In this document: one piece after another, positions 7,882 to 55,243 of the stretch
Layout: each line of letters opens with the position of its first letter
How positions within the stretch are numbered: the first letter of the stretch is position 1
Source of the DNA: Actinomycetes bacterium
GTDB lineage: Bacteria; Actinomycetota; CALGFH01
DNA: 58,678 nt
Assembly: GCA_030146615.1 (NCBI GenBank)
Contig: JASLBL010000245.1
Span: forward strand, 1-58,678
Direction: 5' to 3'
The notes under the pieces: generated by a model
What the model saw: the letters and a program-made list of their open reading frames with translations, nothing else
Databases searched by the model: none
What the model was told of the DNA's origin: nothing
Made by a program: the position numbers and the translations under genes

Positions 7882-7973
7882 CGCGGGTCGATCGCTCAAG
7901 GTCGAAAAGCGACCTAAAAGGCGGTTAGATGGTTGAATATCGAACCGAACCCCGAGGGCCTGGGAGGCGGCGG

Positions 7974-13296: not shown

Positions 13297-13301
13297 CCGA
13301 C

Positions 13302-35550: not shown

Positions 35551-36132
35551 TCAGGGGGTGGTCGGGGTCTCCGGCTGGCTGTCGAGGACCCGCTTGGCGA
35601 TCTCGGCCAGGGGGAGCTGGCGGTCCATGGCCGCCCGGCGCATGCGGGTGTAGGCCTGGTCCTCGGTGAGGCCGAACTGCTCCATGAGCCGGCCCTTGGC
35701 CTTCTCGATCACCTTGCGGGCGGCCAGCTTGGACTCCAGGTCGTCGACCGTGCCCTGGAGCTCGCGGCGGTCGGCCGCCCTGGCCAGGGCGACGTTCACC
35801 CCGGCCAGCAGCTGGGCCGGCTGGAACGGCTTGACCAGGTAGCCGATGGTGCCGGCGTCGGCCGCCTCCTCGACCAGCTCCTTGTCGGAGAAGGCGGTGA
35901 GAACGAGCACGGCCGGGCCCTCGGCGGTGATCTGGCGGGCCGCGGTCAGGCCGTCGACCTTGGGCATCTTCACGTCCATGACCACCAGGTCGGGACCGAG
36001 CTCGCGGGCCAGGCGCATCGCCTGCTCGCCGTCGCCGGCCTCGCCAACCACGGTGTGGCCGCCCTCCTCGAGGGTCTCGACGATGTCCACCCGGATCAGG
36101 ACCTCGTCCTCGGCGACGAGCACACGCGCCAT
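35551..36132 (-). CDS. pdtaR: ANTAR-domain response regulator (PdtaR-like)
   Basis: ATG 36132 is preceded by AAGGAG. Receiver: MARVLVAEDE, LVVMDVKMP, LVKPF. ANTAR helices: LESKLAARKVIEKAKGRLMEQFGLTEDQAYTRMRRAAMD. It lies 59 nt downstream of gltB on the same strand. Confidence 0.85.
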   Translation of the reverse strand: MARVLVAEDEVLIRVDIVETLEEGGHTVVGEAGDGEQAMRLARELGPDLVVMDVKMPKVDGLTAARQITAEGPAVLVLTAFSDKELVEEAADAGTIGYLVKPFQPAQLLAGVNVALARAADRRELQGTVDDLESKLAARKVIEKAKGRLMEQFGLTEDQAYTRMRRAAMDRQLPLAEIAKRVLDSQPETPTTP

Positions 36133-36191
36133 CCTGCTCCTTCCACCACGAACGTCGGGTAGGCATCGTAGCCCGGAAGCTGGCTGGCGGG

Positions 36192-39100
36192 TCATGCGGT
36201 TCCCTCGTGGGCGCGCTCGATGGCCGCGACCTCAGCCCGGGGCGCGACCCGCCAGAACGCGGCGTAGGAGCGGTCCCAGCTGTCCAGGATCTCCCCAGCC
36301 ACCGCCGAGCCGGTCAGCTCGTGGTGGGCGACGATCAGCTCGCGCAGGAACACCAGCTCGAACTCGTCCGGCCGCACCGGCTGCACCAGCTCGTCGTTCA
36401 GCTGGTCGAGGGCCCGGCCATCGGGGTCGTAGAGGAACAGCTCGCCGCCGGTCATGCCGGCTCCCAGGTTGCGGCCGACCGGCCCGAGCACGATCACCGA
36501 CCCGCCGGTCATGTACTCGCCGGCGTGGTCGCCGACGCCCTCGACCACCGCCGTGGCCCCCGAGTTGCGCACCGCGAACCGCTCCCCGGCCCGCCCGGCG
36601 CAGAACAGCTCGCCCCGGGTCGCCCCGTACAGGGCGGTGTTGCCGATCAGGACGGGCGTGCCGGCGTCGTCGGCCGGGGGGCGGACGACGATGCGGCCGC
36701 CGCCCATGCCCTTGCCGACGTAGTCGTTGCAGACGCCGGTGAGCCGTAGGTCGATCCCGGGGGCCAGGAACGCGCCGAAGCTCTGCCCGGCCGTCCCCTC
36801 GAGCTCGATCCGGGCCCGCCCGGCCGGCGGCCGCGAGCCGAAGGCGGCCCCGACGGCCACCCCGAGGCGGGCCCCGACCGCCCGGTCGGTGTTGCTGATC
36901 GGGTACTGGAGGTGGACCAGGCCGCCGTCGCGCAGCCCCGGCCAGGCCTCGTCGTGGACCCGGTCGCCGAGCTCGGAGCGGGGGCGCTGGATCGGGTCGG
37001 AGGCCACGAACCGCGTCGCCGGGACCTCGCCGTCGTCGCCTTCGGCCCCGATGGCCAGCAGCGGCGACAGGTCGAGACTGTCGGCCCGGGCGTCGCCGGT
37101 GCGGCGCTGGGCCAGCAGGTCGACCCGGCCGACGGCCTCGTCCAGGCTGCGCAGCCCCAGGGAGGCCAGCAGCTCCCTGGTCTCCTGGGCCACGTACTCG
37201 AGGTAGTGGACGACCATGTCCGGGGTGCCGGTGTACTTGGCCCGGAGATCGGGCCGCTGGGTGGCGATCCCGACCGGGCAGTTGTCCTGGTGACAGGTCC
37301 GGACCATCAGGCAGCCCTCGGCCAGCAGGGCGGCGGTGCCGAAGCCGAACTCGTCCGCCCCCAGCAGGGCCGCCACCAGCACGTCCCGGCCGGTCTTGAA
37401 GCCGCCGTCGACCCGGACCTTGCAGCGCGAGCGCAGGTTGTTGGCCACCAGGGCCTGCTGGGTCTCGGCCAGGCCCAGCTCCCAGGGGGCACCGCCGTGC
37501 TTGATCGAGGACAGCGGGCTGGCCCCGGTGCCGCCGTCGGCGCCGGAGATCATGACCACGTCGGCCAGCGACTTGACCACCCCGGCGGCGATCGTGCCCA
37601 CCCCGGCCTCGGCGACCAGCTTCACCGACACCTCGGCCTCGGGGTTGGCCTGCTTCAGGTCGAACACCAGCTGGGCCAGGTCCTCGATGGAGTAGATGTC
37701 GTGATGCGGCGGAGGCGAGATCAGCGCCACCCCGGGCTGGGTGTGCCGCAGGCGGGCGATCTCGGCCGACACCTTGTGACCGGGCAGCTGGCCCCCCTCG
37801 CCCGGCTTGGAGCCCTGGGCGATCTTGATCTGGAGCTCGACGGCGTTGGCCAGGTATGCCGGGGTGACCCCGAAGCGGCCGGAGGCGACCTGCTTGATGG
37901 CCGAGCTGCGCTCGGTGCCGAAGCGGGCCGGGTCCTCGCCGCCCTCGCCACAGTTGGACCGGCCCCCGACCCGGTTGAGGGCGATGGCCAGGGTCTCGTG
38001 GGCCTCCGGGGACAGCGACCCGAGGCTCATGGCCGCGGTCGAGAACCGGGCCATGATGTCGGCCGCCGGCTCGACCTCGTCCACCGGCACCGGCGGGCCG
38101 GCCGGACAGGTCGCCAGCAGGTCGCGCAGGGCGGCCGGGGGCCGCTCGTTGACCAGGCTGGCGAAGTGCTTGTAGCGCTCGAACCCGCCCCCCTTGACCG
38201 CCTGCTGGAGCAGGTGGGCGCCGCGCTTGGAGCCCTTCATCTCGGCCCCCTCGCGCACCGTGAAGTGCAGGGCCTGCATGACCTCGGGGTTGGTGGCGTG
38301 ATACTCGCCCCCGGGGCGGTGCTTGAACCAGCCGGGGTTCTCCAGCCGGGCCACCTCGGCCTGGCCGGCCCGGTGGCGCTCCAGGGCGTCGGCGGCCAGC
38401 TCGTCGAGGCCGATCCCGCCGAGGGGGGACGGGGTGCCGGCGAAGCAGAGGTCGACGACCTCCTCGTCCAGGCCGACGGCCTCGAAGATCTGCGCCCCCC
38501 GGTAGGCGTCGAGCACCGAGATGCCCATCTTGCTCATGACCTTGAACACGCCCTCGGTGAGGGCGCCCCGGTAGCGGTCCTGGGCGGCCGCCGGGTCCTG
38601 GTCGAGGGTGGCCGCCGCGGCCAGGGTGAGCCGGGGGCAGACGGCGTCGGCCCCGTAGCCGAGCAGGGCGGCCGCGTGGTGGGAGTCGACCGGCTCCCCG
38701 GTGTCGGCGACCACGCCGGTCCTGGTGGCCAGGCCCTCCCGGAGCAGCCGCTGCTGCACCGCCCCGACGGCCAGCAGCGACGGCACCGGCACAGCCCCGT
38801 TCAGCTCGTCGGCGGCGGCGTCGGAGACGACCAGCAGGCAGGCGCCGTCGCGCACGGCCGCCACCGCCTCGTCGCCGAGGCGCAGGCAGGCCGTCCGCAG
38901 CCCGCCCGGGCCCTCGTCCGCCGGCCAGGTGGCGTCCAGCACCCGCGGGCACAGCCCGAGGTCCGGGTCCTGGAGGGCCTCCAGCCCGTCGGGGGTGAGG
39001 ACGAAGCCGTCCAGCTCCAGCATCCGGGCCGCCTCCGGCTCCTCGCTGAGCAGCGGGTGGCGGCAGCCGAGCAGGGTCCGGCTGGACAGCACGTGGCGCT

Positions 39101-40676
39101 CGCGCAGGTGGTCGATGGGCGGGTTGGTGACCTGGGCGAAGCGCTGGCGCAGGAAGTGGCCGACCGGGCGGGTGGTGGCCCCGAGCACGGCCGGGGGCGT
39201 GTCGTCGCCCATGGAGGCGGTCGGCTCCTTGCCGGCGGTGGCCATCGGCCGCAGCACGGTGGTGACCAGCTCCCGGGTGAACCCGAAGATGGCCTGGGTG
39301 GCGACGGCGCGGCGCTCGTCGGCGGGCGGATCGACCGGCCGGCCGGCGTCGATGGTCGACAGATTTTCGGCCACCCAGGCGCTCCAGGGCCGGCTGGCGG
39401 CCAGCTCCTCCTTGATCTGCTCGTCGGTGAGCAGGCCCCGCTCGGGGTCGACGCAGAGCATCTGCCCCGGCCCGAGCCGGCCCCGCCGCACCCGGCCGCG
39501 GCCGGCGGTGTCGACCGCGCCGGCCTCCGAGGCGCAGACGACCAGGCCGTCCTCGGTCGCCTCCCAGCGCATCGGCCGCAGCCCGTTGCGGTCCAGGGCG
39601 GCCCCGACCAGGCGGCCGTCGGTGAACACCAGCCCGGCCGGGCCGTCCCAGGGCTCGGTCAGGCAGGCGTGGTAGCGGTAGAAGTCGCGCAGGTCCTGGC
39701 GGTCGTCGCCGGCCAGCGGCTCGACCGCCGGGACCAGCATGGCCAGGGCGTGGCGGAGGTCCCGGCCGCCCCTGACCAGCAGCTCCACCGCGTTGTCGAG
39801 CTTGGCCGAGTCGGAGCCGTCGGGGTCGAGCACCGGCCGCAGCAGCTCCTCGTCCAGCTCGCCGGCGCCTAGACGCCCCTCCCTCGCCCGCATCCAGGCC
39901 ACGTTGCCGTCGAGGGTGTTGATCTCGCCGTTGTGGCAGAGGAAGCGGAACGGCTGGGCCCGCTCCCAGGAGGGTGCGGTGTTGGTCGAGTAGCGCTGGT
40001 GGAACACGGCGAAGGCGACCTCGAAGGCGGGGTCGGCCAGGTCGGGGTAGAAGGCGGCGAGCTGGTCGGCCGCGCACAGCGCCTTGTAGGTCACGGTCCG
40101 GGTCGAGCAGGAGGCCAGGTACAGGCCGACCTCGGCCTGCCGGGCGGCCAGGGCGGCCCGCCGCCCGGCCCGGAAGCAGCGCCGCTCGGCCTCCTCGGAG
40201 TCGGTGTCGACCTGGAAGATGGCCTGCTCGATGGCGGGCGCGTTCGAGCGGGCCACGTCGCCAAGGGCCGCCAGGTCGACTGGGACCGGCCGCCAGCGGA
40301 GCAGCTCCAGCCCCTCGGCGACCAGGGCCTGCTCGACCAGCCGGCGGGACTCCTTGGCCTCCTCGGGGTCGCGGGGCAGGAAGGCCATGGCCACCCCGAG
40401 CCGGCCGCGGCGGCCTTCGGCCTGGGGACCGGCGAAGAACGCCTCGGGCAGCGGGAGCAGGACGCCGGCGCCGTCGCCGGTGCGGGCGTCGGCGGCGACC
40501 GCGCCTCGGTGCCGGAGCCGCTCCAGCCCGGCGACGGCCGCGTCCAGGACGGCCCGGCCGGGGCGGCCGTGCACGTCGGCCACGAAGCCGATGCCGCAGG
40601 CGTCGCGCTCGTCGCGCCGCCGGTCGTACAGGGCCCGGCCGTTGCGGCCGGTGCCTTGCAGGAGGTGGTCCGTCAT
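36192..40676 (-). CDS. gltB: glutamate synthase large subunit
   Basis: ATG 40676 is preceded by GGAGG. Ntn-amidotransferase Cys in RDERDACGIGFVA, FMN/Fe-S central domain, C-terminal GXGXG beta-helix (AVVEGVGDHAGEYMTGG). 1,494 aa. No gltD is adjacent. Confidence 0.9.
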   Translation of the reverse strand: MTDHLLQGTGRNGRALYDRRRDERDACGIGFVADVHGRPGRAVLDAAVAGLERLRHRGAVAADARTGDGAGVLLPLPEAFFAGPQAEGRRGRLGVAMAFLPRDPEEAKESRRLVEQALVAEGLELLRWRPVPVDLAALGDVARSNAPAIEQAIFQVDTDSEEAERRCFRAGRRAALAARQAEVGLYLASCSTRTVTYKALCAADQLAAFYPDLADPAFEVAFAVFHQRYSTNTAPSWERAQPFRFLCHNGEINTLDGNVAWMRAREGRLGAGELDEELLRPVLDPDGSDSAKLDNAVELLVRGGRDLRHALAMLVPAVEPLAGDDRQDLRDFYRYHACLTEPWDGPAGLVFTDGRLVGAALDRNGLRPMRWEATEDGLVVCASEAGAVDTAGRGRVRRGRLGPGQMLCVDPERGLLTDEQIKEELAASRPWSAWVAENLSTIDAGRPVDPPADERRAVATQAIFGFTRELVTTVLRPMATAGKEPTASMGDDTPPAVLGATTRPVGHFLRQRFAQVTNPPIDHLRERHVLSSRTLLGCRHPLLSEEPEAARMLELDGFVLTPDGLEALQDPDLGLCPRVLDATWPADEGPGGLRTACLRLGDEAVAAVRDGACLLVVSDAAADELNGAVPVPSLLAVGAVQQRLLREGLATRTGVVADTGEPVDSHHAAALLGYGADAVCPRLTLAAAATLDQDPAAAQDRYRGALTEGVFKVMSKMGISVLDAYRGAQIFEAVGLDEEVVDLCFAGTPSPLGGIGLDELAADALERHRAGQAEVARLENPGWFKHRPGGEYHATNPEVMQALHFTVREGAEMKGSKRGAHLLQQAVKGGGFERYKHFASLVNERPPAALRDLLATCPAGPPVPVDEVEPAADIMARFSTAAMSLGSLSPEAHETLAIALNRVGGRSNCGEGGEDPARFGTERSSAIKQVASGRFGVTPAYLANAVELQIKIAQGSKPGEGGQLPGHKVSAEIARLRHTQPGVALISPPPHHDIYSIEDLAQLVFDLKQANPEAEVSVKLVAEAGVGTIAAGVVKSLADVVMISGADGGTGASPLSSIKHGGAPWELGLAETQQALVANNLRSRCKVRVDGGFKTGRDVLVAALLGADEFGFGTAALLAEGCLMVRTCHQDNCPVGIATQRPDLRAKYTGTPDMVVHYLEYVAQETRELLASLGLRSLDEAVGRVDLLAQRRTGDARADSLDLSPLLAIGAEGDDGEVPATRFVASDPIQRPRSELGDRVHDEAWPGLRDGGLVHLQYPISNTDRAVGARLGVAVGAAFGSRPPAGRARIELEGTAGQSFGAFLAPGIDLRLTGVCNDYVGKGMGGGRIVVRPPADDAGTPVLIGNTALYGATRGELFCAGRAGERFAVRNSGATAVVEGVGDHAGEYMTGGSVIVLGPVGRNLGAGMTGGELFLYDPDGRALDQLNDELVQPVRPDEFELVFLRELIVAHHELTGSAVAGEILDSWDRSYAAFWRVAPRAEVAAIERAHEGTA

Positions 40677-40746
40677 CTCGCCTCCGAAAGCACTGCTGGA
40701 GCGGCGGACGCCAGGACCCGGGTGGACAACGATGTCCAGGGACACG

Positions 40747-40776
40747 AAAACGGCGCCGCCTGGGGCGAGCGCCGTT
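40747..40776 (-). terminator. intrinsic-terminator-like hairpin plus U4 between the giant gene and gltB
   Basis: mRNA sense AACGGCGC-U-CGCC-CCA-GGCG-GCGCCGUU followed by UU(CG). This is a 12-bp GC-rich stem with one bulge. It is either the terminator of the upstream operon or an attenuator in the gltB leader. Confidence 0.5.
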
Positions 40777-40791
40777 GCTCTTCGAACACTG

Positions 40792-40820
40792 AGCGTACGG
40801 AGGCTGGTCCGGCGCGTCAA
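40792..40820 (-). promoter_or_regulatory. candidate gltB promoter
   Basis: Minus-sense TTGACG (40820-40815), exactly 17 nt, then TACGCT (40797-40792; TAnnnT). It lies upstream of the hairpin at 40747..40776. Confidence 0.45.
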
Positions 40821-40859: not shown

Positions 40860-43800
40860 CTACCCGTCGCGGGCCGTCCTCTGCCGCCAGGCGACCACGG
40901 CGCCGGCCCCGGCGGCCAGGAGCAGCAGCGCCAGCGCCCCGCCGACCAGCCGCAGGAGCGGGGCCGGGTCGAGCCGGATCTCGGCCGGCCCGGCGGGCAG
41001 TCCGGGCACCGGCTCCGGCCGCATGGCCTGCCTCGGGACCAGGCCGAGGCGCACGGCCAGCTGGCCGAGGGCGGCCGGTCGGACGGGGCCGCCGTCGGCC
41101 GGCAGCTCCAGCACCGCCCGCTCGAACGGCTGGCGCATGGCCCCGTCCGGCATGATCTGGGGCAGGCCGAGCGGGCGCCCGAACCGGTCGCGGGCCCGCG
41201 CGAAGTCCTCGGCCGTCGCCGTCGCCGGGTCGGTGCCCAGGTAGGCGCGGGCGATCAGCTCCTCACGGAGCAGGGCCCGGGTCTGCCGGTTGGTGACCGG
41301 CGGGGCGGTCGACGGCAGCGGGATGTCGGCGTCGGCCACCGCCTCGACGTCCAGCTTGGCGAGCAGGGGCGGCAGCTCGATCGGCCGCACGGCCGGCGGG
41401 CCGCCGGCGGTCGGGACCGCCCCCAGGACCATGGTGTCGAACGCCTGGAGGGCCGGGCCGTCGCTGGTCCAGACCGACCCCAGCGGGCGGCCGAGGACGG
41501 CCTTGCCGCCGACCGACCGGTAGGCGCTGTGGAACGTGCCGGCCTGGCTGTCCACCACCCGGTAGCCGCCGCAGGCCGAGCCGGTGGTGTTGGAGAACAC
41601 CCCGTCGGGCAGCGGCAGGAGGTCGGCCACGGGGTCGAGCGGGGCGGCGTCGACGCGCCACAGCTCCACCCCGGACAGGCTGCGGGACGGGTGCGCGGCC
41701 AGCCTGGTCCCGTGCTGGCGGACCCAGGCGGCCAGCGACGGGGTCAGGGGGCCCTGGGCGGTCCCGCCGGTCAGCACGAAGTAGCGGACGCCGGCGGCGT
41801 GGGCGGCCGGCCCGCTGGAGAACTCGGTCACGGTGACGCCGGCGGCCAGCAGCCGGGCCCGGTCGTCGGGGCCGCTGGCGTTGACCGCCGAGCACTCCGG
41901 AACCTCGGCGCCGACCGTCGCCACCAGGCGCCCGAGGCCGTCGTCGGCCTGCCCTCCGTACCGGCCGGCCCAGTTGACCGCCTGGGCGGCGAGCAGCCCC
42001 ACGAGCACGACCCCGGCCCCGGCGAGGGCAGCCCGCCGGGCCTGCTGGGTGGCGCCGGCCGCGACCAGCGTCACCGCCGCCACGGCCACGGAAACGGCCG
42101 CGGCGGGCACGGCGAACGGGAGGGCCTGCTCGGCCGGGTACCCGAGGGCGATCGCGGCCAGCGCCCCGGCCGCCGAGGTCGCCGACCAGGCGAGCAGCCG
42201 GGCCGCCCCTGGGCCGGCATCCGACCTGGCGCCGGACCGGTGGCGCCAGGTCAGGATGGCGGCGGCCAGGCCGGCGGCGACCAGCAGCCAGGTCAGGGGA
42301 GCGCCGGCCAGCGACGCGGCCACCGACCCGCGCCCCTGGGGCCGGCCGAGCAGCCACCCGGCCTGCCCGGCCCCCAGGTCCTGGCCCGCCACCCAGACCG
42401 GCAGGAGCAGCCAGAGGCCGATGGCCAGCCCGAGCGCGGCCATGTCCTTCCAGGCCTCCTGGTAGCGCCCATGGAGCAGCTCGGCGACCACGGGCACGGC
42501 CAGCACCGGCAGGGCCAGCGGGCTCACCAGCAGGGCGAGCCCACCCCCGGCGGCCACCAGCGGCAGCCAGCGCAGAACCGGCCGCGCCGGCACCCCCCAG
42601 GCCAGAGCGACCGTGCCCACCGCGAGGAGCACGGCCAGCACGGTCCCGGTCGCCGCCCGTCCGCTCTGCACCACCAGCGGGTCCAGCGCCACCAGCGCCC
42701 CTGCCAGCGCCGCTCCTCCCAGCCGCCACAGCCGGCCCGGCCGTCCTCCTTGCGGCGGGGCCGGACCCGGCCCGGCCGCCGCACCGGAACCGGGCCCGAC
42801 CCGCATAAGCAGCAGGAAGAGCGCCACCGTCAGACCAACCACACCCGCCAGCAGGAACCGGCTCGGCACCCTCGCCTCCCGGACCACCGCCTCCAGCGAC
42901 CCCCCAGCCTCGGTCGCCCGCAGCCAGATCCCAGCCCCCAGCGCATACACCGGCTCGATCGGCCCAACCCTGGGGTCCTGCACCACCAGCCCGCCCCCAC
43001 TCCCCCCGGCAGCCCTCACCACCGCCACCTCACCCGCCCGGGTGTCAGCCCCGCCAGCTCCAACCCACCCGGCGGCCCCCACGGCCAGCACCGCCATGAG
43101 CAAAGCAACCACGGCGGGTCGAGCCACCCGCCCACCGGCATCCGCAGTCGGCGTCGCACCCGCCGCCGCGTCCGCCGCAACCTTCGCCCGCCGCGCTTCG
43201 TCCCGTGCCGTCCTCCGGGCCGCCCGCTCCCGAGCCGCCTCCGCCCGGGCTAGTTCCCGAGCCTCGGCCTTCGCCGCCTTGTCCTGCCGGGACTGCTCCC
43301 GCTTCACCCGGTTCTCGACAGCCTTCGCCTGAGCGGCGGCGGCCCGCTCCGCCGTACGCGCCTCGGCTTGAGCCGCCTTCACCCGCTCGGCCTCCATCTG
43401 CGCCGACTTGCGGGCCTCGGCCCTCGCCTGCGCGGCAGCGGCCCGGGCCGCCCGCCGCTCCTCCGCCTTTGCCGCTCGCACCTGCCCGGCCTCCGCACGG
43501 GCGATCCGCCGTGCCTCGGCCTCGATGGCCTTCGCCTTGGCTGCCTCCGCCTGCTCCGCCTTCCGAGCCTCGGCCTCCGCGGCCCGTGCCTGCTCGGCCT
43601 CACGACGGGCGGCCGCCTTCGCCTCCTCCTGCGCCGCCTTGGCCTGGGCGGCGGCGGCGCGGGCCGTCCGCCGCTCCTCCGCTCGGGCCGCCTTCGCCTG
43701 GCTGGCCTCCGCGCGCGCGGCCGCCTGGGCCTCGGCCTTGGCCGCCTTCGCCTGCTGGGCCTGCTGGCGGCGAACCTCGGCCTCTGCCGCCCGCTTCGCC

Positions 43801-45785
43801 TTCTCCTCTGCCCGCGCCGCCTGGCGAGCCTCGGCCTGCGCCGACCTCGCCTGCGCGGCGGCGGCCCGGTCCGTACGGCGCTCCTCGGCGCGGGCTGCCC
43901 TGGCCCGCCGGGACTCGGCACGCGCCGCCTTTCGGGCCTCGGCACGGGCCGTGCGCCGCTGGCGGGCCTCGGCGCGAGCCGCTTCCCGGACCTCGGCCCT
44001 TGCCGCCGTCGCCTGGAGCGCCTGCTCGCGCCGGACCTTGGACCCGGCCGCCCGCTTCTCCCGTGCCTGGGCCCGAGCGGCCCGCCGCTCCTCCGCCCGT
44101 GCCGATCGGGCCTGTCGCGATGCGTCCTTCCGGGCGGCCCTGGCCCGGACCGCCTCCTCGTGGGCCGCTCGACGCTCCGCGGCCCGCGCGATCTTCGCCT
44201 GACGGGATTCCTCGCGCGCGACCCGCCGCGCCTCCGCCTGCTCGGCCTTGCGCGCCTCCGCCGCGGCTGCCTCCACCCGGCGTGCCTCGTCACGAACCGC
44301 GCGACGCGCCTCCGCCTCAGCCGCCTCCGCCTGACGTGCCTCCGCGCGGGCGGCCCGTCGCGCCTCAGCCTCAGCCGCCCGGGCCTGGCGCTCCTGGTCA
44401 CGGGCGGCCCGACGGGCCTCGGTCTCAGCCGCCTGGACCCGGCGGGACTCAGCTCGGGCGGTGCGGCGCTCCTCAGCTCTGGCGGCCCTGGCCTGGCGGG
44501 ACTCGGCGCGGGCGGCCTGTCGTTCCTGTTTCCGGGCCGCCTTGGCCTGGCGGGCCTCCTCGGCGCGGGCCTGACGTTCCTCGCGGGCGATCCGGCGGGC
44601 CTCGGCCTGGGCAGCCTGGGCTTGGAGCTGCTCCTCGCGGGCGGCGGTTCGCGCGTCGGCGCGGGCCATGCGCTGGCGGCCGGCTTCCGCGCGGGCCGCC
44701 TTCCGGCTCTCAGCGCGAGCCGTCTTCTTCTGGCGGGCCAGCTCGCGGCGGGCTTCGGCCTCGGCGGCCCTGACCTGCCGGGCCGCCTGGCTCTCCGCTT
44801 CCGCGCGACGCTTCGCGGACGCCGGACTCTTCCTGCCGGCGGGCTGGCGAGCCCCCGGACCGGTCTTCCACCCGCGGAGCCGCTCGAACGTGGCCTCGTC
44901 CATCCCGGGCGCGACCTGACCCGGGCCGATCACCGGGTCCAGCTCCTGACCGCTCAGGCCGATGAGCCGTCCCGACTCGGAGACCGGCAGGCCCGGGCCC
45001 TCCACCTCGACCGCCGCGGCCGCCCCGTCCGCCTCCTCCACCGACCCGGCCGGCGGCTGGTCAGTGGCGGCCACCTCCGGGTCTGGCCGGACCTCCGGTC
45101 CAGGGGGCGGGTCCGGCTGCAACTCCGGCCCGGGGGGCGGGTCCTGATCCGGCTCGAGCTCCGGCTCGGGACTGGTCTCCACGTCGGGCTCGAGCTCCGG
45201 CGGGGTGGACTCGCCGGCCTCCTCCAGCGCCGCCTCCTGCTCCGGTGCCACCTCGTCGGTGACCCGGGTCTCGGTGGCACCGGTAACCGCCGACCAGAGC
45301 TCGCCGATCTGGAGGGGGCGGTAGAGGACGGTCCGGGGCGGGCTGGGCGGGAGGGCTTGGACGTGCTCCCCTTCCTGGAGGAGGACGACGGTGCGGCCCA
45401 GGAAGCGGCCGTCGAGGACGGCGAAGGTCCGCTCGTGGAGGGTTGGGGGCATGTCGACGATGACCACGTCGGCGTGACGGATGACGGTGTCGAGCTCCTC
45501 GCTGTACCAGTCGAGCATGCGGACCCCGCCGGGGGTCTCGATCAGGGAGCGGAGGGCGCTGGCGAGCATCTTGTCGCGGGAGACCAGGATCACCCGGAGG
45601 GCGGGGCCCTCGGGACCGGGGGCGGGCTGGCCGGCCCGTGGGCCGGAGCTCGGCAGCGAGGTGCGCTCGGGACCGTTGGAGCGGACCGGCTTGCCGGGCC
45701 CCGGCTCGGGGCGGGGTGGGGACTGCTGGGAGGTCGAGGTGGCGCGGCCACCGGCGCGCCCGGACCCACCGGGACGGTCGCTCAC
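40860..45785 (-). CDS. 1,641-aa multidomain membrane protein: pseudo-receiver, acidic Pro linker, Ala/Arg/Glu repeat helix, polytopic GT-C-like core, LGFP-like ectodomain, C-terminal anchor
   Basis: Single uninterrupted frame. GTG 45785 overlaps the sortase stop (GTGA). Recognisable protein-like segments at both ends are in the same frame as the low-complexity middle. See findings. Confidence 0.75.
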   Translation of the reverse strand: MSDRPGGSGRAGGRATSTSQQSPPRPEPGPGKPVRSNGPERTSLPSSGPRAGQPAPGPEGPALRVILVSRDKMLASALRSLIETPGGVRMLDWYSEELDTVIRHADVVIVDMPPTLHERTFAVLDGRFLGRTVVLLQEGEHVQALPPSPPRTVLYRPLQIGELWSAVTGATETRVTDEVAPEQEAALEEAGESTPPELEPDVETSPEPELEPDQDPPPGPELQPDPPPGPEVRPDPEVAATDQPPAGSVEEADGAAAAVEVEGPGLPVSESGRLIGLSGQELDPVIGPGQVAPGMDEATFERLRGWKTGPGARQPAGRKSPASAKRRAEAESQAARQVRAAEAEARRELARQKKTARAESRKAARAEAGRQRMARADARTAAREEQLQAQAAQAEARRIAREERQARAEEARQAKAARKQERQAARAESRQARAARAEERRTARAESRRVQAAETEARRAARDQERQARAAEAEARRAARAEARQAEAAEAEARRAVRDEARRVEAAAAEARKAEQAEARRVAREESRQAKIARAAERRAAHEEAVRARAARKDASRQARSARAEERRAARAQAREKRAAGSKVRREQALQATAARAEVREAARAEARQRRTARAEARKAARAESRRARAARAEERRTDRAAAAQARSAQAEARQAARAEEKAKRAAEAEVRRQQAQQAKAAKAEAQAAARAEASQAKAARAEERRTARAAAAQAKAAQEEAKAAARREAEQARAAEAEARKAEQAEAAKAKAIEAEARRIARAEAGQVRAAKAEERRAARAAAAQARAEARKSAQMEAERVKAAQAEARTAERAAAAQAKAVENRVKREQSRQDKAAKAEARELARAEAARERAARRTARDEARRAKVAADAAAGATPTADAGGRVARPAVVALLMAVLAVGAAGWVGAGGADTRAGEVAVVRAAGGSGGGLVVQDPRVGPIEPVYALGAGIWLRATEAGGSLEAVVREARVPSRFLLAGVVGLTVALFLLLMRVGPGSGAAAGPGPAPPQGGRPGRLWRLGGAALAGALVALDPLVVQSGRAATGTVLAVLLAVGTVALAWGVPARPVLRWLPLVAAGGGLALLVSPLALPVLAVPVVAELLHGRYQEAWKDMAALGLAIGLWLLLPVWVAGQDLGAGQAGWLLGRPQGRGSVAASLAGAPLTWLLVAAGLAAAILTWRHRSGARSDAGPGAARLLAWSATSAAGALAAIALGYPAEQALPFAVPAAAVSVAVAAVTLVAAGATQQARRAALAGAGVVLVGLLAAQAVNWAGRYGGQADDGLGRLVATVGAEVPECSAVNASGPDDRARLLAAGVTVTEFSSGPAAHAAGVRYFVLTGGTAQGPLTPSLAAWVRQHGTRLAAHPSRSLSGVELWRVDAAPLDPVADLLPLPDGVFSNTTGSACGGYRVVDSQAGTFHSAYRSVGGKAVLGRPLGSVWTSDGPALQAFDTMVLGAVPTAGGPPAVRPIELPPLLAKLDVEAVADADIPLPSTAPPVTNRQTRALLREELIARAYLGTDPATATAEDFARARDRFGRPLGLPQIMPDGAMRQPFERAVLELPADGGPVRPAALGQLAVRLGLVPRQAMRPEPVPGLPAGPAEIRLDPAPLLRLVGGALALLLLAAGAGAVVAWRQRTARDG
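43170..44819 (-). repeat. coding low-complexity region (aa ~323-872 of the giant protein) with units of about 70 aa (about 210 bp)
   Basis: Composition is almost only A, R, E, K, Q. AEERR recurs at aa 437, 564, 633, 702 and 774. The last three are each followed by (T/A)(D/A)RAAAAQA(R/K). Several other frames on both strands are also stop-free here. Confidence 0.85.
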
Positions 45786-46474
45786 CGGGCCACCCCCTCG
45801 CCGTCGGGGACTCTGGTCGCCGAGACGACCAGGTTGTCGCGGTAGCTGCGGCTAGCCCGGTCGAAGGTGCCGGCGCAGGTGATCAGGCGCAGCACCGGGG
45901 CGGTTGTTGCGCCGTAGACAGCCTCGGACGGCAGCGACTGCTTGGGGTAGCTGGCCAGCGCGTCGACCTTGAACCTGACCACCCGGCGGTCGGCCCGGAC
46001 CACCTGGATCTGGTCGCCGGGGCGCAGCTCGCGCAGCCGGTAGAACACGGCCGGTCCGGTCCGGGAGTCGACATGGCCGGCGATCACCGCCGGGCCCAGC
46101 TGGCCGGGCTGGGGAGCGCCGGTGAACCAGCCGGCGGCCTGGAAGTCGCCGGGGACCTCCATGCTCCGGTCGGGGTCGAGCCCGAGCCGGACCAGGGGCG
46201 AGGACACGCCGATGGCGGGGATCTCGACCCGCACCGGGGGCGAGGGCGGCAGGCGCCGCCAGGACCCGACCGGGAAGTCGATGACCTCGGTGGAGCGGGT
46301 CGGGCTGGCCGCCGGCTGGGTGCTGGCGGCCCCGGCGACCGCGGAACGGCTGGCCGGGGGCGCGGCGTGCGACACCCGCTCCCCCGCTGGCCGGGCGCCG
46401 GCGCAGCCGGCCGCGCCAGTGACCACCAGACTCAGCACGACCACCCCCCGGCGGATCCTGTCTTCCCTGGTCAT
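45782..46474 (-). CDS. sortase family protein (class F-like), lipoprotein-type signal
   Basis: LSLVVTGAAGCAG lipobox. Catalytic His in VIAGHVD, Cys in LRLITCAG, Arg in RDNLVVSA. Confidence 0.8.
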   Translation of the reverse strand: MTREDRIRRGVVVLSLVVTGAAGCAGARPAGERVSHAAPPASRSAVAGAASTQPAASPTRSTEVIDFPVGSWRRLPPSPPVRVEIPAIGVSSPLVRLGLDPDRSMEVPGDFQAAGWFTGAPQPGQLGPAVIAGHVDSRTGPAVFYRLRELRPGDQIQVVRADRRVVRFKVDALASYPKQSLPSEAVYGATTAPVLRLITCAGTFDRASRSYRDNLVVSATRVPDGEGVAR

Positions 46475-46490: not shown

Positions 46491-47336
46491 CTAGCCGCTC
46501 GACCGCCGCTGCTGGACGACGAACCCGGTGGTGGCGGCCAGGCCGAGGCCGATCAGCAGGAGCAGCGCGAACCTGCGCCCGCCGCGGCTGGGGCTGGGAG
46601 CGGTCCCGCCCGCCCCGGTGGCCACCCCGCCGGCGGCGGACACCGCGGCGGCCGCGTCGCTGATGTCGAGCAGCTGGAGCTTCTCGCCGATGCCGCCCAC
46701 CGCGACCAGCGACGAGATGGAGCCGCTGGCCAGCTTGACGTTGTCGGACTTGGCCAGGACCTCGCCGGTGCCGGTCTTGCGGACCTCGACGTCGACCGAG
46801 CCCGCCTCGACCTCCTGGTAGTCGCTGGCCGACGGGAACTTGGCGTTGGCGATGAGCACGTCGCCGCCCGTGACCAGGTCCACCGCGCTCTCGCCGGGGA
46901 TGGCCTGGATCAGCCTGACCTTGCTCTTGCTGCCGGCGGGTCGGGACATGTCGTCGGTCAGCAGCGCCGCCTCGACGGAGGTGAGCTGCCCGAACACCGC
47001 GACCGTGTAGGCCTTGCCGGCCGCCAACTCGACGGTGGCCGCGATCACCGGGGGCGAGTTCGCCGGCTCGCCGGCCTCGCGCACCTCGACCTTGAACTTC
47101 CCCGGCTTGACCTTGAGGTAGTCCGAGACGGTCTTGAACGGCACGCCCTTGAGCTGGAGCCGGCCGTTGACGTAGACGACGTAGACGTCGCCCTTGAGCA
47201 ACCCTGGGGCGAAGTGGGCCACCCGGACCAGCGATTCCTCCCCAGCTTGGGCACCGGCGGCGGCCGTCCCGGGCATGGCCAGCATGGCCGCTGTCATTGC
47301 GGCCAGGACCACGGCGGCCAGTCGTCGGCGTTGCAT
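46491..47336 (-). CDS. DUF4397 domain protein, secreted, with C-terminal hydrophobic anchor
   Basis: ATG 47336 is preceded by GAGGAGGGG. Signal peptide AAVVLAAMTAAMLAMPGTAAAGA. Two DUF4397-like repeats (LVRVAHFAPG..DVYV.V.G.. and VRLIQAIPG..VDLV). Tail: GGRRFALLLLIGLGLAATTGFVVQQRRSSG. Confidence 0.75.
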   Translation of the reverse strand: MQRRRLAAVVLAAMTAAMLAMPGTAAAGAQAGEESLVRVAHFAPGLLKGDVYVVYVNGRLQLKGVPFKTVSDYLKVKPGKFKVEVREAGEPANSPPVIAATVELAAGKAYTVAVFGQLTSVEAALLTDDMSRPAGSKSKVRLIQAIPGESAVDLVTGGDVLIANAKFPSASDYQEVEAGSVDVEVRKTGTGEVLAKSDNVKLASGSISSLVAVGGIGEKLQLLDISDAAAAVSAAGGVATGAGGTAPSPSRGGRRFALLLLIGLGLAATTGFVVQQRRSSG

Positions 47337-47344
47337 TGCCCCTC

Positions 47345-47385
47345 CTCGTTCGTCGTTCGTCCGGGGGGACGCGAACGACGACGAG
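47345..47385 (-). promoter_or_regulatory. long leader hairpin abutting the DUF4397 Shine-Dalgarno sequence
   Basis: mRNA sense CUCG-UCGUCGUUCG-CG-UCC-CCCC-GGA-CGAACGACGA-A-CGAG, immediately followed by GAGGGGCA-AUG. An upstream CGGGGGGCG (plus strand 47391-47400) can alternatively pair with the C-run. Confidence 0.45.
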
Positions 47386-47638
47386 TTGGTACGCCCCCCG
47401 CGATCCCGACCACGCATGCCGTCACGAGCCGTTTCGATGGTCATTATCTGCGCTGACCGTTCCTGCGAGCGCCCCCAATTCTGCGTAGTTCGCATCAGAC
47501 GAGCAGGTGAACGCGGTAGTATCTGGCCGCCGAATAGCGCCGGACATTGACGAATCCGGGGTCAACGAGTTACTTGAGGCTTTTGCGAACCTCATCGTCG
47601 GACGGACCACCGGGCTCCGGGACGGCTAGGCTGACGCC

Positions 47639-49081
47639 ATGACTGACGTTGCCCCACCGGTGCGGCGCCGGCTCTCCGACGACGCGATCGAGCACCTCCA
47701 CAGCCTGATGGCGGGCTGGCAGCTGATCGCCGACCTCGCCTTCGCCGACCTGCTGCTGTTCCTGGCCGTGGAGGGCAGCGAGAGCTTCCGCATCGTCGGC
47801 CAGCTGCGCCCCTACACGGCCCGTACCCTGTACCCGGCCGACCTGGTCGGCGAGGTGGTCGAGCCGACCTGGCACCCGTATGTGGAGCGGGCCTGGCGGG
47901 AGGGGCGGCGCCAGCGCTCGCTGGAGCCGATCCTGATCGACGCCGAGCCGGTCCGGGTCGAGACCGTGCCCGTCCGGCACCAGGGCGAGATCGTGGCCGT
48001 GCTCAGCGTCGAGGCGCCCGAGACCCCCGCCCGCCCCACCGGACGGCTGGAGGCGGCCTACCTGGGCGCGGCCGAGGCCCTGCTGGAGATGGTGGCCACC
48101 GGCGCCTTCCCGTTCGTCGAGGCCACCGACCCGACGGCCTCCCCCCGGGTCGGCGACGGCCTGGTCGTGCTCGACGCCAGCGGCCGGGTCGAGTTCGCCA
48201 GCCCCAATGCCACCTCGGCCTTCCGGCGCATGGGCACCAACGCCCTGCCGCTCGGCCAGCCGCTCCCCCACCGGGCGGCCATCCTGGTCGCCGAGGCGAT
48301 GGCCGGCGGCCGCCCGGTCGAGTCCGAGATCGACGCCGCCGGGGCGGTCACCGACGTCCGGGTGGTCCCGCTGCTGCGGGGCGCCGACCGCCGCGGGGCC
48401 CTGGTGCTGGTCCGGGAGGCGACCGAGCTACGCCGACGCGACCGGGTCATCTCCCGGCGCGAGGCGACCATCCGCGAGGTCCACCACCGGGTCAAGAACA
48501 ACCTCCAGACGGTCGCCTCCCTGCTCCGGCTCCAGGCCCGCCGGCTCGGCGACCACCCGCAGGCGGTGGCCGCCCTGGAGGACTCGGTGCGCCGGATCAC
48601 CTCGATCGCGCTGGTCCACGAGACCCTGACCGAGGAGTTCGAGGGCGCGGTGGACATGGCCGACGTCGCCCGGCGGATCGTCAAGATGCTGGCCGGCTCG
48701 CTCGGCCGCGAGGACGCTCACATCGAGCTGCACACGGCCTCGGTGCCGGTGGACGCGGCCGTGGCCACCCCGCTGGCGGTGGTGCTGAACGAGCTGGTCC
48801 AGAACGCGATCGAGCACGGCCTGGGTGACGGGCGCGGGACGGTCACGGTCGAGCTGCGCGGCGGCGGGAACGAGCCGGTGGTGCTCCAGGTCCACGACGA
48901 CACCGGCTCCGGTAAGGATGCGGAGCAACCGGCCATCCACAGCCCCGAGGGCGGGCTTGGCCTGCGCCTGGTCAGGGCGCTGGTCCAGGAGGAGCTGAAC
49001 GGCCAGTTCACGCTGTCCCACCCGGCCGGGCGGGGAAGCATCGCCACCGCCATTGTCCCGCCGGTCGAACGAAAGGCCTGA
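47639..49081 (+). CDS. pdtaS: cytoplasmic GAF/PAS sensor histidine kinase (PdtaS-like)
   Basis: No TM segment. H-box IREVHHRVKNNLQTVASLLRLQ (HisKA_2 type), N-box LNELVQNAIEHG, G-box GGLGLRLV. Confidence 0.85.
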   Translation: MTDVAPPVRRRLSDDAIEHLHSLMAGWQLIADLAFADLLLFLAVEGSESFRIVGQLRPYTARTLYPADLVGEVVEPTWHPYVERAWREGRRQRSLEPILIDAEPVRVETVPVRHQGEIVAVLSVEAPETPARPTGRLEAAYLGAAEALLEMVATGAFPFVEATDPTASPRVGDGLVVLDASGRVEFASPNATSAFRRMGTNALPLGQPLPHRAAILVAEAMAGGRPVESEIDAAGAVTDVRVVPLLRGADRRGALVLVREATELRRRDRVISRREATIREVHHRVKNNLQTVASLLRLQARRLGDHPQAVAALEDSVRRITSIALVHETLTEEFEGAVDMADVARRIVKMLAGSLGREDAHIELHTASVPVDAAVATPLAVVLNELVQNAIEHGLGDGRGTVTVELRGGGNEPVVLQVHDDTGSGKDAEQPAIHSPEGGLGLRLVRALVQEELNGQFTLSHPAGRGSIATAIVPPVERKA

Positions 49082-52911: not shown

Positions 52912-53775
52912 ATGCCGCCTGGACAGAGCATCCTGATCACCGGTGCCACCTCGGGCATCGGCCGGGACGCGGCCCTGCGCCTGGCCCGGGCCGGGCACCT
53001 GGTCCTGGCCGGCGGCCGCCGGCCCGACGCCCTGGCCGCCCTGACCCGCGAGGGCGGGGGCCGGGTGGAGCCGGTGGTACTGGACGTGACCGACCCGGCC
53101 TCGGTCGAGGCAGCCCGCGAGCTGGTCGACCGCCGCACCGGCGGCCGCGGCATCGACGTGCTGGTCAACAACGCCGGCTACGCCCTCCCGGGCCCCCTTG
53201 AGACCTTGTCGGAGCGGGACCTGCGCGCGCTGTTCGACACCAACGTGTTCGGCCTGCTGGCGGTGACCCGGACGTTCGTCCCCGCCATGCGCGGGCGCGG
53301 CCAGGGCCGGGTCGTGAACGTCGGCAGCATCATGGGCCGGGTCGCCATGCCCCTCCTGGGCGCCTACAACGCCACCAAGCATGCCGTCGCCGCCATCACC
53401 GACGCCCTCCGCATGGAGCTGGCCCCCTTCGGCATCACCGTGGTCCTGGTCGAGCCGGGCGCCATCCGAACCGGGTTCGCCGCCACGGCCCTCGCCACCC
53501 TGGCCCCCGACCGCGACCCAGGCTCCCCGTACGCGACCGCCCTCGCCGCCACCGAGGAGGTCTGGGCCCGGGTCTACCGGTTCGCCCCCGGCCCGGCGGC
53601 GGCGGGTCGGGCGGTCGTTCGCGCCGCCACCTCGCCCCGCCCGGCCGCCCGCTACACGGTCCCGTTCAGCAACCGCCTGCTCGTGGCCACCCTGTCCGGG
53701 CTCCCGACCCCGGCCGCCGACGCCACCAAACGCCTGATCATGGGCCTCCCGCCGTTCAGGCGTCGAGCGCGGTGA
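52912..53775 (+). CDS. short-chain dehydrogenase/reductase (SDR)
   Basis: ATG 52912. TGATSGIGRD, NNAG, YNATK. Confidence 0.85.
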   Translation: MPPGQSILITGATSGIGRDAALRLARAGHLVLAGGRRPDALAALTREGGGRVEPVVLDVTDPASVEAARELVDRRTGGRGIDVLVNNAGYALPGPLETLSERDLRALFDTNVFGLLAVTRTFVPAMRGRGQGRVVNVGSIMGRVAMPLLGAYNATKHAVAAITDALRMELAPFGITVVLVEPGAIRTGFAATALATLAPDRDPGSPYATALAATEEVWARVYRFAPGPAAAGRAVVRAATSPRPAARYTVPFSNRLLVATLSGLPTPAADATKRLIMGLPPFRRRAR

Positions 53776-55243
53776 CCTCGATCCCGAACTCGATCGTCCA
53801 GGGGCCGTCGCCGGCGTCGGGGCCGGGCCGCTCGGGGAGGGGGGCGTCGGGGGCGGTCGGGAGCGGGGCCGGGAGGCCGGGGCGGCTGCGGTAGGCGTGG
53901 TCGCCGGTGCCCCAGTCGTCGAGGCCGAGGTAGGGCTCGCGGACCATCCCGGCCGGCGAACCGTCGCCGTCCTCGCCGGTGACGGCGACCGACAGGACCG
54001 AGCTGGGGTTGAGGACCAGGTCGAACCGCTGGTCGAGCTCGAACCGCTTGCCGTCCTGGACGTCGGCCGCCCCCTCCTCCGGCCAGCGGGCCGCCTGGTC
54101 GCCGACGTTCAGGCGCAGCACCAGCCGGCCCCCGACGGCATCGGCGTCCTCGACGGTGACGCCGGTGAAGGTCACCGTGACCCGGGAGCGGCGGTGCGGG
54201 GGGATCACGGTGACGCCGACCTCGTCCACCGCGCCCGGCTCGCCCGGGGGGATGCCCAGCCAGCAGCCCTCCTCGGAGAGGTAGCCGGCGGCGATGGCGT
54301 AGCTGCCGGGGACCGTGCCGAAGCCGTCGCTGGCCTTGAACACTGCCCGCTCCTCGCCCGGCTCCAGCGGGGTCGGGTCGCCGTCGCCGCCCAGGAAGCG
54401 GTCGAGGTTCTCGCCGGCCGGGCCGCGGACGGCCAGCCGCAGCTCCGACAGGTGGGCCCGGTAGTCGCCGTAGTTGCGGGCGGTGAACTGGGCGACGAAG
54501 TTCCCGCCGAGGGTGGGGGTCCAGGAGTTGACCCAGATCCCCTTGGCCGCCCCGAGGTCGATGTAGGGCGGGCGCTCGCGGGCGTAGTCCTGGAGGAACA
54601 GCCCCCGCCACGGCCCGTCGCCGGCGCTCGCCTCCCAGCACCGGTCGCCCGGCTCGAACCCGAGCACGACCTCGTCGTCGGGGTGGTGGCTGTCGTAGAC
54701 GAACAGCCGGATCGGCGGTCCGCCGCCCGGCCCTGGACCCTCGTCGTCGTAGCCGTAGGCGACCACCTGACGGTTGCGGCCCACCTCCTCCAGGGAGCGG
54801 GCGCCGACCAGGCCGAGGACCACCGGGCGGCCGGCGTCGATGCTGCGCCGCACCCGGGGCAGCTCGTCGGTGGTGAGCCGGGCGACCCCCGCCGAGGACC
54901 AGGTCGGGTGGTCCTCGGCCAGCGACCAGGTCAGGAACTGGCGGGCGCTCCAGGTGGCGTAGCTGTCGAACAACCGCTTGTGGATGAAGTCGGCCAGGCG
55001 GGTGCCGTCGTCGGGGACGGCCCGGTCGGGGAAGTCCTCAGGGCGGTGCGAGGGTACCGGCAGGCCCGCGAACCAGTAGTCGAGCGCCGCGAACGCCATG
55101 CCACCGGAACGACCGTCGGTGGCCACCTCGCCGTAGCCTGGAATGGTCACGACCTTGTCCACGAAGTCGTTGGCGAAGTGGAATCCGTGCGCGCGTGGAT
55201 CGAAGCCGGTTCTCGGCACAGGCCCCCCCTGAAGATCTTGCAC
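53756..55243 (-). CDS. 495-aa cytoplasmic protein of unknown function (three-domain)
   Basis: GTG 55243, no signal peptide. N-terminal domain of about 215 aa, followed by two beta-rich segments. The 3' end overlaps the SDR gene by 20 nt (convergent). Confidence 0.6.
   Translation of the reverse strand: MQDLQGGPVPRTGFDPRAHGFHFANDFVDKVVTIPGYGEVATDGRSGGMAFAALDYWFAGLPVPSHRPEDFPDRAVPDDGTRLADFIHKRLFDSYATWSARQFLTWSLAEDHPTWSSAGVARLTTDELPRVRRSIDAGRPVVLGLVGARSLEEVGRNRQVVAYGYDDEGPGPGGGPPIRLFVYDSHHPDDEVVLGFEPGDRCWEASAGDGPWRGLFLQDYARERPPYIDLGAAKGIWVNSWTPTLGGNFVAQFTARNYGDYRAHLSELRLAVRGPAGENLDRFLGGDGDPTPLEPGEERAVFKASDGFGTVPGSYAIAAGYLSEEGCWLGIPPGEPGAVDEVGVTVIPPHRRSRVTVTFTGVTVEDADAVGGRLVLRLNVGDQAARWPEEGAADVQDGKRFELDQRFDLVLNPSSVLSVAVTGEDGDGSPAGMVREPYLGLDDWGTGDHAYRSRPGLPAPLPTAPDAPLPERPGPDAGDGPWTIEFGIEVTALDA

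Follow-up and report, generated by a model that had tools for sequence, protein, structure and literature searches.

Locus and reading frame

The stretch of DNA analyzed here (the window) comprises 58,678 nucleotides (nt) of contig JASLBL010000245.1 in assembly GCA_030146615.1, assigned to an Actinomycetes bacterium of the GTDB lineage CALGFH01. It contains a giant gene for a membrane protein of 1,641 residues, in which a receiver-like N-terminal domain (N-domain) is joined through a long spacer to a polytopic core resembling GT-C glycosyltransferases, followed by an ectodomain and a terminal transmembrane helix (Table 1). The gene is a single uninterrupted open reading frame (ORF) of 4,926 nt running from position 45785 down to 40860 on the minus strand, and the plus-strand translation of the same region is riddled with stops and meaningless. 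Its GTG start shares the tetranucleotide GTGA with the TGA stop of the upstream gene and is preceded by GAGGGGG. A preliminary description of this DNA, made from its letters and ORFs, had given the frame with the right coordinates but without its strand. The strings quoted there were all recovered from the translation, including RVILVSRD, ADVVIVDMPP, TVVLLQ and LYRPLQIGEL, the repeats PELEPD (twice) and DPPPGPE(L/V)(Q/R)PDP (twice), QDPRVGPIEPVYA, LGRPLGSVWTSDGPALQAFD (aa 1431–1450), FGRPLGLPQIMPDGAMRQPFE (aa 1535–1555) and the terminal WRQRTARDG. The regional compositions and hydrophobic spans of that description also reappeared in the composition and hydropathy profiles, where the hydropathy peaks lie at aa 891–909, at about ten places between aa 978 and 1270, and at aa 1613–1631.

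The G+C content of the window is ~70–79%, and many long shadow ORFs arise in high-GC DNA, so that such a long frame might be a chance ORF or else an assembly fusion of separate genes. A few homologues (P0104, P0107/P0098 and P0011; P numbers denote related proteins and L numbers loci) are indeed called as split genes. Against such an artefact, the G+C content at third codon positions (GC3) is 0.79–1.00 in each 100-codon block over the entire frame, and ~45 full-length homologues from independent metagenome contigs encode the same order in one polypeptide: N-domain, GPGQVAPGMD motif, spacer, transmembrane core, ectodomain and terminal transmembrane helix. Moreover, conservation is domain-specific, with identities to the homologues of 65–82% in the N-domain, ~10% in the acidic linker, 53–81% in the GPGQVAPGMD motif, 54–70% in the transmembrane core and 64–76% in the ectodomain. 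In the split versions the tails are frameshifted, as is usual for misassembly of a repeat region, which is what they look like. Because the architecture is shared by the ~45 full-length homologues in independent contigs, the ORF is a real single gene with one product, as the preliminary description had held, and the artefact explanation is essentially refuted.

Table 1. Features of the giant gene and of the adjoining genes in the window
Feature	Position	Strand	Residues	Basis or remark
Whole giant gene	40860..45785	minus	1,641 codons + stop	Starts at a GTG that overlaps the stop of the sortase gene (GTGA)
Pro/Gly/Ser-rich N-terminal extension, predicted disordered	45603..45785	minus	aa 1–61	Composition, AlphaFold2
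Divergent CheY-like (receiver-fold) domain	45285..45602	minus	aa 62–167	AlphaFold2, Foldseek, hhalign
Acidic Pro/Glu-rich linker with short tandem repeats	45003..45284	minus	aa 168–261	Unconserved, ~10% identity
Conserved motif GLPVSESGRLIGLSGQELDPVIGPGQVAPGMDEATFERLRGW, matching no known family	44862..45002	minus	aa 262–308	53–81% identity in close relatives
A/R/E/K/Q repeat array	43146..44819	minus	aa 323–880	Composition and periodicity
11-helix transmembrane core, predicted GT-C fold, PMT/PMT_2 lineage	41958..43139	minus	aa 883–1276	AlphaFold2, Foldseek, profile searches
ADTRAGEVAV, degenerate counterpart of the family motif SPDxxxDExxY	43020..43049	minus	aa 913–922	Profile alignment
Extracytoplasmic domain (ectodomain)	40965..41957	minus	aa 1277–1607	Conserved across the whole wider family
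Ectodomain repeat 1, LGRPLGSVWTSDGPALQAFD	41436..41495	minus	aa 1431–1450	hhalign between repeats
Ectodomain repeat 2, FGRPLGLPQIMPDGAMRQPFE	41121..41183	minus	aa 1535–1555	hhalign between repeats
Terminal transmembrane helix and basic cytoplasmic tail (WRQRTARDG)	40863..40964	minus	aa 1608–1641	
Class F sortase, LITC active-site motif	45782..46474	minus		Upstream of the giant gene; stop overlaps its start
DUF4397 surface protein with C-terminal GVATG, transmembrane segment and basic tail (RRSSG)	46491..47495	minus		Upstream of the sortase gene
gltB, glutamate synthase large subunit	36192..40820	minus		39 nt downstream of the giant gene

Receiver-like N-terminal domain

The N-terminal extension, which has similar counterparts in the homologues P0032 and P0050, leads into a compact domain. 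An AlphaFold2 model of aa 55–326, built from an alignment with 34 homologues, contained a (beta-alpha)5 unit over aa 64–168 with block-mean predicted local distance difference test (pLDDT) values of 83–92, in which alpha4 is nearly absent. In a Foldseek search against the PDB, the top match of this unit was the atypical CheY-like domain of TadZ (4lda; template modeling score (TM-score) 0.68 normalized to the target, probability 1.0), followed by the receivers of BqsR, DesR, Spo0F, FixJ, FleQ-type proteins, GlnR and HP1043. The target-normalized TM-scores of the matching receivers were 0.55–0.68, and Rossmann-type proteins gave partial matches only.

The receiver family model Response_reg (PF00072), a check suggested in the preliminary description, gave no match to the giant protein at E ≤ 0.1; by comparison, a genuine receiver encoded elsewhere in the window reaches 92 bits. 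Sequence searches of Pfam, NCBIfam and the PDB with the N-domain likewise returned nothing significant. The similarity of a shallow family profile to receivers was not significant. When the profile was later widened by three N-domains of 27–35% identity (P0137, P0144 and P0186), hhalign aligned it with six genuine receivers over 105 columns (E 2.5e-4, probability 43%), and its best PDB matches were response regulators. In this alignment D111 falls on the phospho-acceptor D57 of CheY, S69-R70 on the DD pair with D71 directly after it, Q137 on the T/S position (CheY T87), and R156-P157 on K109-P110. This is the register expected from the preliminary description, which had proposed a pseudo-receiver at aa ~62–170 with the acceptor Asp kept and the DD pair, T/S and K replaced, and the predicted fold agrees with it.

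Of the receiver signatures, the Mg-binding DD pair is thus replaced by S69-R70, the T/S by Q137 and the K by R156, and D111 at the acceptor position is kept even in the 27–35% identical relatives. Residues invariant across all relatives comprise R70-D71, D106, D111, F128, G130-R131, E140 and R156-P157-x-Q159, and the N-domain is the most conserved module of the giant protein. Considering that the fold is CheY-like, that three of the four catalytic signatures are gone and that the pocket face is strongly constrained, the N-domain is predicted to be a pseudo- or atypical receiver.

A different origin, as a remnant of a BY-kinase/ParA-type P-loop ATPase, was rejected in view of the widened profile, which placed response regulators first, and of the fold search, which favored CheY-like domains; the weak PDB matches of the shallow profile had lain in the Walker-B region of BceF/Etk (E 0.08–0.25). 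A search with the N-domain only, directed at other architectures, recovered fragments of the same family only. One protein, P0262 from a 1,126-nt JGI contig, consists of an N-domain of the giant type fused to a GerE/LuxR helix-turn-helix (HTH). This HTH shares 82% identity with the C-terminal end of a GerE-HTH regulator that is large and otherwise unrelated (L021 1649–3193), and a metagenome scan yielded no second example of this combination. As a single example on a probably chimeric contig, P0262 was not used as a sign of response-regulator ancestry.

GT-C fold of the membrane core

The C-terminal part of the protein (aa 881–1641) was modeled by AlphaFold2 from 38 sequences with a mean pLDDT of 67, many 10-residue blocks of the transmembrane core reaching 70–90. 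The model consists of eleven transmembrane helices, an alpha/beta ectodomain and a final transmembrane helix, so that prediction on the separate segments, as had been proposed for a check, returned both a receiver-like fold and transmembrane helices. The core is predicted to be oriented N-in, with Arg-rich loops on the cytoplasmic side in agreement with the positive-inside rule, and the N-domain and tether would therefore be cytoplasmic and the ectodomain outside. In Foldseek, the top 29 PDB matches of the core were all GT-C proteins (probability 1.0, E down to 1.3e-5, target-normalized TM-score ≤0.60), and STT3, AftD, ALG9/ALG12, ArnT, DPY19, PglB, Pmt4 and EmbA/B were among the enzymes matched.

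At the sequence level, neither PMT (PF02366) nor PMT_2 (PF13231) matched the giant protein at E ≤ 0.1, leaving the gathering threshold unmet, and nothing significant emerged from Pfam, NCBIfam and PDB sequence searches with the giant protein and the family profiles. PMT_2, which the preliminary description had named as a test, nevertheless gave sub-threshold matches in 10/38 and 13/27 relatives. Two distant relatives of ~590 aa (P0184 and P0195) pass the Pfam PMT gathering score with 32 bits against 22.7, and the family profile search links the core transitively to Pfam PMT/PMT_2. These models and profiles indicate that the core has a GT-C fold and a PMT/PMT_2-like descent, in line with the GT-C-like polytopic core first described. 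The first loop with its acidic residues had been likened there to the architecture of ArnT/PMT-type enzymes; the GT-C architecture holds, but the signature is found not in QDPRVGPIEPVYA but in the preceding ADTRAGEVA (aa 913–921).

Loss of catalytic hallmarks

In an hmmalign alignment of 134 relatives to the core profile, 57 proteins that carry the Asp of the DE motif (DE-type) were set against 75 that lack it (DE-less). Loop 1 of the DE-type proteins reads SPDxxxDExxY...VHPPL, whereas members of the DE-less clade have PDTLAGEVA...PIEPL. Four loop-1 positions that hold Asp (100%), Glu (100%), Tyr (98%) and His (81%) in the DE-type proteins hold Gly (95%), Glu (100%), Val/Ala and Ile/Val, respectively, in the DE-less ones. 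In the window protein the DE Asp has become G918, the Tyr V922 and the VHPP His I943 (in I943-E944-P945). Further replacements relative to the DE-type proteins are Glu by T1048, Arg by P1066, G1106 and W1144, Tyr by A1162, W1166 and A1205, Asn by A1218, and Asp by T1342. At twelve positions where the DE-type relatives have a polar residue conserved to at least 80%, a small or hydrophobic residue has taken its place in the DE-less clade, where D914 (91%), E919 (100%), R972, R1021, the invariant R1043 and the Gly/Pro/Trp scaffold are kept.

The receiver-like domain is distributed along the same division. Each of the 42 receiver-bearing proteins lacks the DE Asp, with Gly in its place in 39 of them and Ala, Arg and Ser in one each. 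The receiver domain is missing from all 57 DE-type proteins, and the receiver-bearing proteins fall within the wider DE-less clade. With Gly in place of the hallmark DE Asp and Ile in place of the VHPP His, the core looks like a degenerate, possibly non-catalytic GT-C. Loss of polar residues on a retained scaffold is the usual mark of a pseudoenzyme or of a changed reaction, and proves neither.

Tether and ectodomain

The tether between the N-domain and the membrane core is predicted to be cytoplasmic and hypervariable in length between homologues. Its main part in the window protein, the A/R/E/K/Q array of 558 aa, consists of 38% A, 22% R, 15% E, 8% Q and 5% K, carries a net charge of +61, and repeats with a period of 18 aa (54 nt) and a sub-period of ~9 aa. 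Pairs of E followed by R/K, which at an i/i+4 spacing can stabilize a single alpha-helix, occur 41 times at i+3 and 18 times at i+4, and a heptad signal is absent. Since only 4% of its residues are hydrophobic, and considering also its periodicity, a classical coiled coil is considered unlikely for the spacer. The charged composition first described for a helix of ~550 aa is thus present, but not as a conserved feature: the array measures 0 to ~534 aa among close homologues, the window protein having the longest, and in deeper relatives its place is taken by a tract rich in Pro and as long as ~450 aa. This comparison suggests that a long tether is conserved and the particular helix is not, and that the array is a lineage-specific repeat expansion. 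Several versions of the gene in metagenome-assembled genomes (MAGs) are frameshifted in or near the 54-nt repeat array.

The ectodomain (aa 1277–1607) is common to every class of relatives and has no match in Pfam or among PDB sequences. It contains two mutually similar repeats of the form (L/F)GRPLG-x7-DG-x3-Q-x-F (hhalign E 8.5e-4), which accords with the two copies already described. Their likeness to the cell-wall-binding LGFP pattern is presumed, and membership in LGFP (PF08310) is unsupported by Pfam profiles: two sets of family members that partly overlap, 65 scans in all, gave one sub-threshold match (E 0.026, in P0101), and the giant protein gave none. The terminal transmembrane helix and the RQRTARDG end are present as described. 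No sorting motif of the LPXTG or GVxTG type stands before this helix, the preceding sequence being VPGLPAGPAEIRLDPAPLLRL; the giant protein has the transmembrane segment and basic tail of a sortase substrate, but it was rejected as one for want of the motif.

Proposed role of the giant protein

The reading that we prefer, holding it at about even chances, is that the giant protein is a probably non-catalytic, GT-C-derived sensor or scaffold of the envelope, with the pseudo-receiver as its cytoplasmic module. The core would have given up canonical GT-C catalysis but probably kept the ability to bind, on the outer side of the membrane, either a polyprenyl-phosphate-linked sugar or a glycan of the wall, and the ectodomain would contact the wall. 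On its flexible tether, the pseudo-receiver would act as a phosphorylation-independent protein-interaction module, like the atypical receivers of TadZ and FleQ, and may recruit or regulate a cytoplasmic partner. In Streptomyces coelicolor Pmt, D113 of the DE motif and H159 of the VHPP motif are essential, their substitution by Ala being inactivating, and E114 is dispensable; the equivalent D55 as well as K85 are essential in ArnT (PMC8698208).

Several points weigh against this reading. The cytoplasmic partner of the pseudo-receiver is putative, and the two AlphaFold2 models are of medium quality (mean pLDDT 67 and 70). That the family's DE and VHPP motifs are equivalent to those of PMT is presumed from the identity of the motifs and from the stretch covered by the Pfam match. 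It is possible that all receiver-bearing proteins belong to one clade, and the 42/42 correlation may then go back to one evolutionary event. The DE Asp is not an absolute requirement, because the D113N variant of S. coelicolor Pmt is active and DE mutants of Mycobacterium tuberculosis Pmt keep residual activity (PMC8698208). In the giant family conservation extends to D914, E919 and R1043, close members hardly vary at D1035, and the outer loops are well conserved within the clade, which makes an altered active site conceivable. In addition, the deep receiver-bearing relative P0137 adjoins sugar-nucleotide genes, an arrangement that fits an enzyme as well as a sensor.

Alternatively, the protein may be an active but atypical GT-C, with D914/E919 replacing the canonical DE Asp and with the receiver-like domain localizing or regulating an enzyme that transfers a polyprenyl-phosphate sugar to an envelope glycan or protein. 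The GT-C fold of the core, the conservation of these residues and of the outer loops, the activity of Pmt D113N, and the epimerase, C-methyltransferase, NTP-transferase and PIG-L genes directly downstream of P0137 are all compatible with such an enzyme. It would, however, have to work with twelve polar positions replaced, among them the DE Asp and the VHPP His at which Ala inactivates S. coelicolor Pmt (PMC8698208), and no Pfam GT-C model reaches E 0.1 on the giant protein. An active GT-C is accordingly considered possible, if on the unlikely side.

Genomic context

The genes for the DUF4397 protein, the class F sortase, the giant protein, GltB and a protein with receiver (REC) and ANTAR domains are co-directional and overlap or are separated by short gaps. 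The DUF4397 protein is likely to be the substrate of the class F sortase. The order DUF4397–sortase–giant–gltB is found in the window and in four other loci with 56–71% identical relatives, and the 4-nt overlap between the sortase stop and the giant start recurs in the window, L003, L004 and L005. This conserved order says little on function, because synteny with those genomes extends over the entire region. The deeper receiver-bearing relatives P0137 and P0144 are located after thrS-HIT, with no sortase, DUF4397 or PdtaS gene near them within the available DNA. The linkage to sortase and DUF4397 genes, whose conservation the preliminary description had put in question, therefore extends to five of five close loci but to neither of the two deeper receiver-bearing relatives. 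In L018 (7287–17011), the genes that come after P0137 encode an epimerase, a sugar C-methyltransferase, a nucleotidyltransferase and a PIG-L protein.

This neighborhood raises the alternative that the giant protein, the sortase and the DUF4397 protein form a surface-display module, in which the giant protein glycosylates or chaperones the sortase substrate or is itself sorted. The gene order in all five close loci with its 4-nt overlaps and the GVATG sorting signal of the DUF4397 protein are in keeping with such a module, and secreted proteins are O-glycosylated by PMT-type enzymes in Actinobacteria (PMC8698208). Yet synteny among the close relatives spans all ~20 kb of the region, so that recent divergence may be all that the linkage shows, and P0137 and P0144 do without both partner genes. 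Together with the degenerate catalytic residues and the lack of LPXTG or GVxTG at the giant C-terminus, this renders a display module improbable.

The REC+ANTAR (PdtaR-like) gene at 35551–36195 (minus strand) overlaps the gltB stop by 4 nt, and no gltD lies beside gltB. Divergent from the operon, a gene at 47639–49081 (plus strand) encodes a PdtaS-type soluble histidine kinase (GAF_PdtaS, PAS, HisKA_2 and HATPase domains). The arrangement of PdtaS, REC+ANTAR and gltB is also present in L002 and L003. A more elaborate scheme can be drawn in which the dead GT-C with its wall-binding ectodomain is the sensor of a relay and the pseudo-receiver docks PdtaS, decoying or scaffolding it against the REC-ANTAR protein, whereby the glycan status of the envelope would be coupled to ANTAR-controlled nitrogen assimilation; this scheme is speculative and very unlikely to be correct as a whole.

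Scans around the operon gave no Rfam families and no convincing promoters or terminators. Elsewhere in the window, a REC-PAS-GGDEF-EAL protein is encoded at 55413–57617 (plus strand), as it also is at the edge of the syntenic locus L002. Five ORFs with GC3 of 0.95–0.99 have no Pfam match at E ≤ 1e-5, located at 4397–5404, 6190–7899 and 53756–55243 on the minus strand and at 9958–10779 and 11071–12315 on the plus strand. One further ORF without a Pfam match, 13278–14453 (minus strand), falls outside the GC3 filter.

Distribution and wider family

A search with the C-terminal half of the protein (aa 881–1641) returned 102 proteins of 33–92% identity, all from metagenomes or MAGs labeled Actinomycetes or Actinomycetota; over the homologous region none of them has a Pfam domain. 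A collection of 185,579 species-representative genomes contained no more than 11 loci, all in uncultured MAGs, and an exhaustive profile search yielded 388 cluster representatives at E ≤ 1e-3. Judged from these sequences, the family appears to be confined to uncultured Actinomycetota. It comprises stand-alone proteins of core and ectodomain (~760–800 aa), fusions with a Wzx/Polysacc_synt flippase (1,270–1,540 aa) and the receiver-bearing proteins. The flippase fusion P0101 (L001 10001–13831) belongs to a glycan gene cluster, in which it lies between GT4 genes, three in number, and close to a PIG-L gene and to a PMT_2+YkcB_C pair. The uncharacterized flippase-GT-C fusions P0101, P0126 and P0128 have an intact SPDxxxDExxY motif and the same ectodomain.

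Relation to known systems and significance

GT-C enzymes build and decorate cell envelopes; they synthesize arabinan in mycobacteria, modify lipid A and glycosylate proteins at O and N positions. To our knowledge, GT-C proteins have been described only as enzymes without cytoplasmic signaling domains, and full-text searches yielded no counter-example. The giant protein resembles GT-C enzymes of the PMT/PMT_2-ArnT type (PF02366, PF13231; GT39/GT83) in its 11 transmembrane helices, cytoplasmic N-terminus, large first outer loop and extracytoplasmic accessory domain. It differs from them in having lost the DE Asp (G918) and the VHPP His (I943) along with further polar residues that are conserved there, and in possessing a receiver-like domain, a long tether and a terminal transmembrane anchor, none of which occurs in PMTs. 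With the mycobacterial AftD and EmbA/B/C it shares the character of a very large actinobacterial GT-C with big extracytoplasmic domains, which bind glycan in those enzymes (AftD, Foldseek E 1.5e-4). There is, however, no detectable sequence relationship, and the ectodomain of the giant protein matches no known carbohydrate-binding module or Pfam family. As far as we know, the AftD and Emb enzymes keep their catalytic acidic residues and are devoid of a cytoplasmic receiver-like module.

The atypical receivers of TadZ/CpaE, FleQ/FlrA, GlnR and HP1043, which gave the top structural matches, have the same CheY-like fold with a degenerate phosphorylation pocket. Theirs are found on ATPases and transcription factors, whereas that of the giant protein is tethered to a polytopic GT-C core and has invariants of its own (R70-D71, D111, E140 and R156-P157-x-Q159) and a nearly absent alpha4. 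The nearest known systems also include multi-component transmembrane glycosylation systems, grouped here with the Wzx-flippase-GT-C relatives P0101, P0102, P0126 and P0128. These relatives have a homologous transmembrane core, ectodomain and terminal transmembrane helix at 33–37% identity; they differ in keeping SPDxxxDExxY and VHPP and in carrying a flippase in place of the receiver-plus-tether module. Literature searches on class F sortase with DUF4397, on GT-C proteins with a receiver domain and on pseudo-receivers with a glycosyltransferase found no precedent, consistent with the initial view that no characterized protein joins a receiver-like module to a membrane glycosyltransferase-like core.

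The practical weight of the finding is limited by its origin in uncultured soil Actinomycetota and by the inferred nature of the mechanism. What it offers is a conserved clade in which the loss of catalytic hallmarks is paired with the gain of a tethered pseudo-receiver. If the proposed role is true, this would be a first candidate for a GT-C-derived pseudoenzyme in transmembrane signaling or scaffolding, and atypical receiver domains would be seen with an output or partner of a new kind. The finding also defines an uncharacterized wider family of 388 cluster representatives, without a Pfam or NCBIfam model, which is united by a shared ectodomain and includes Wzx-flippase-GT-C fusions.

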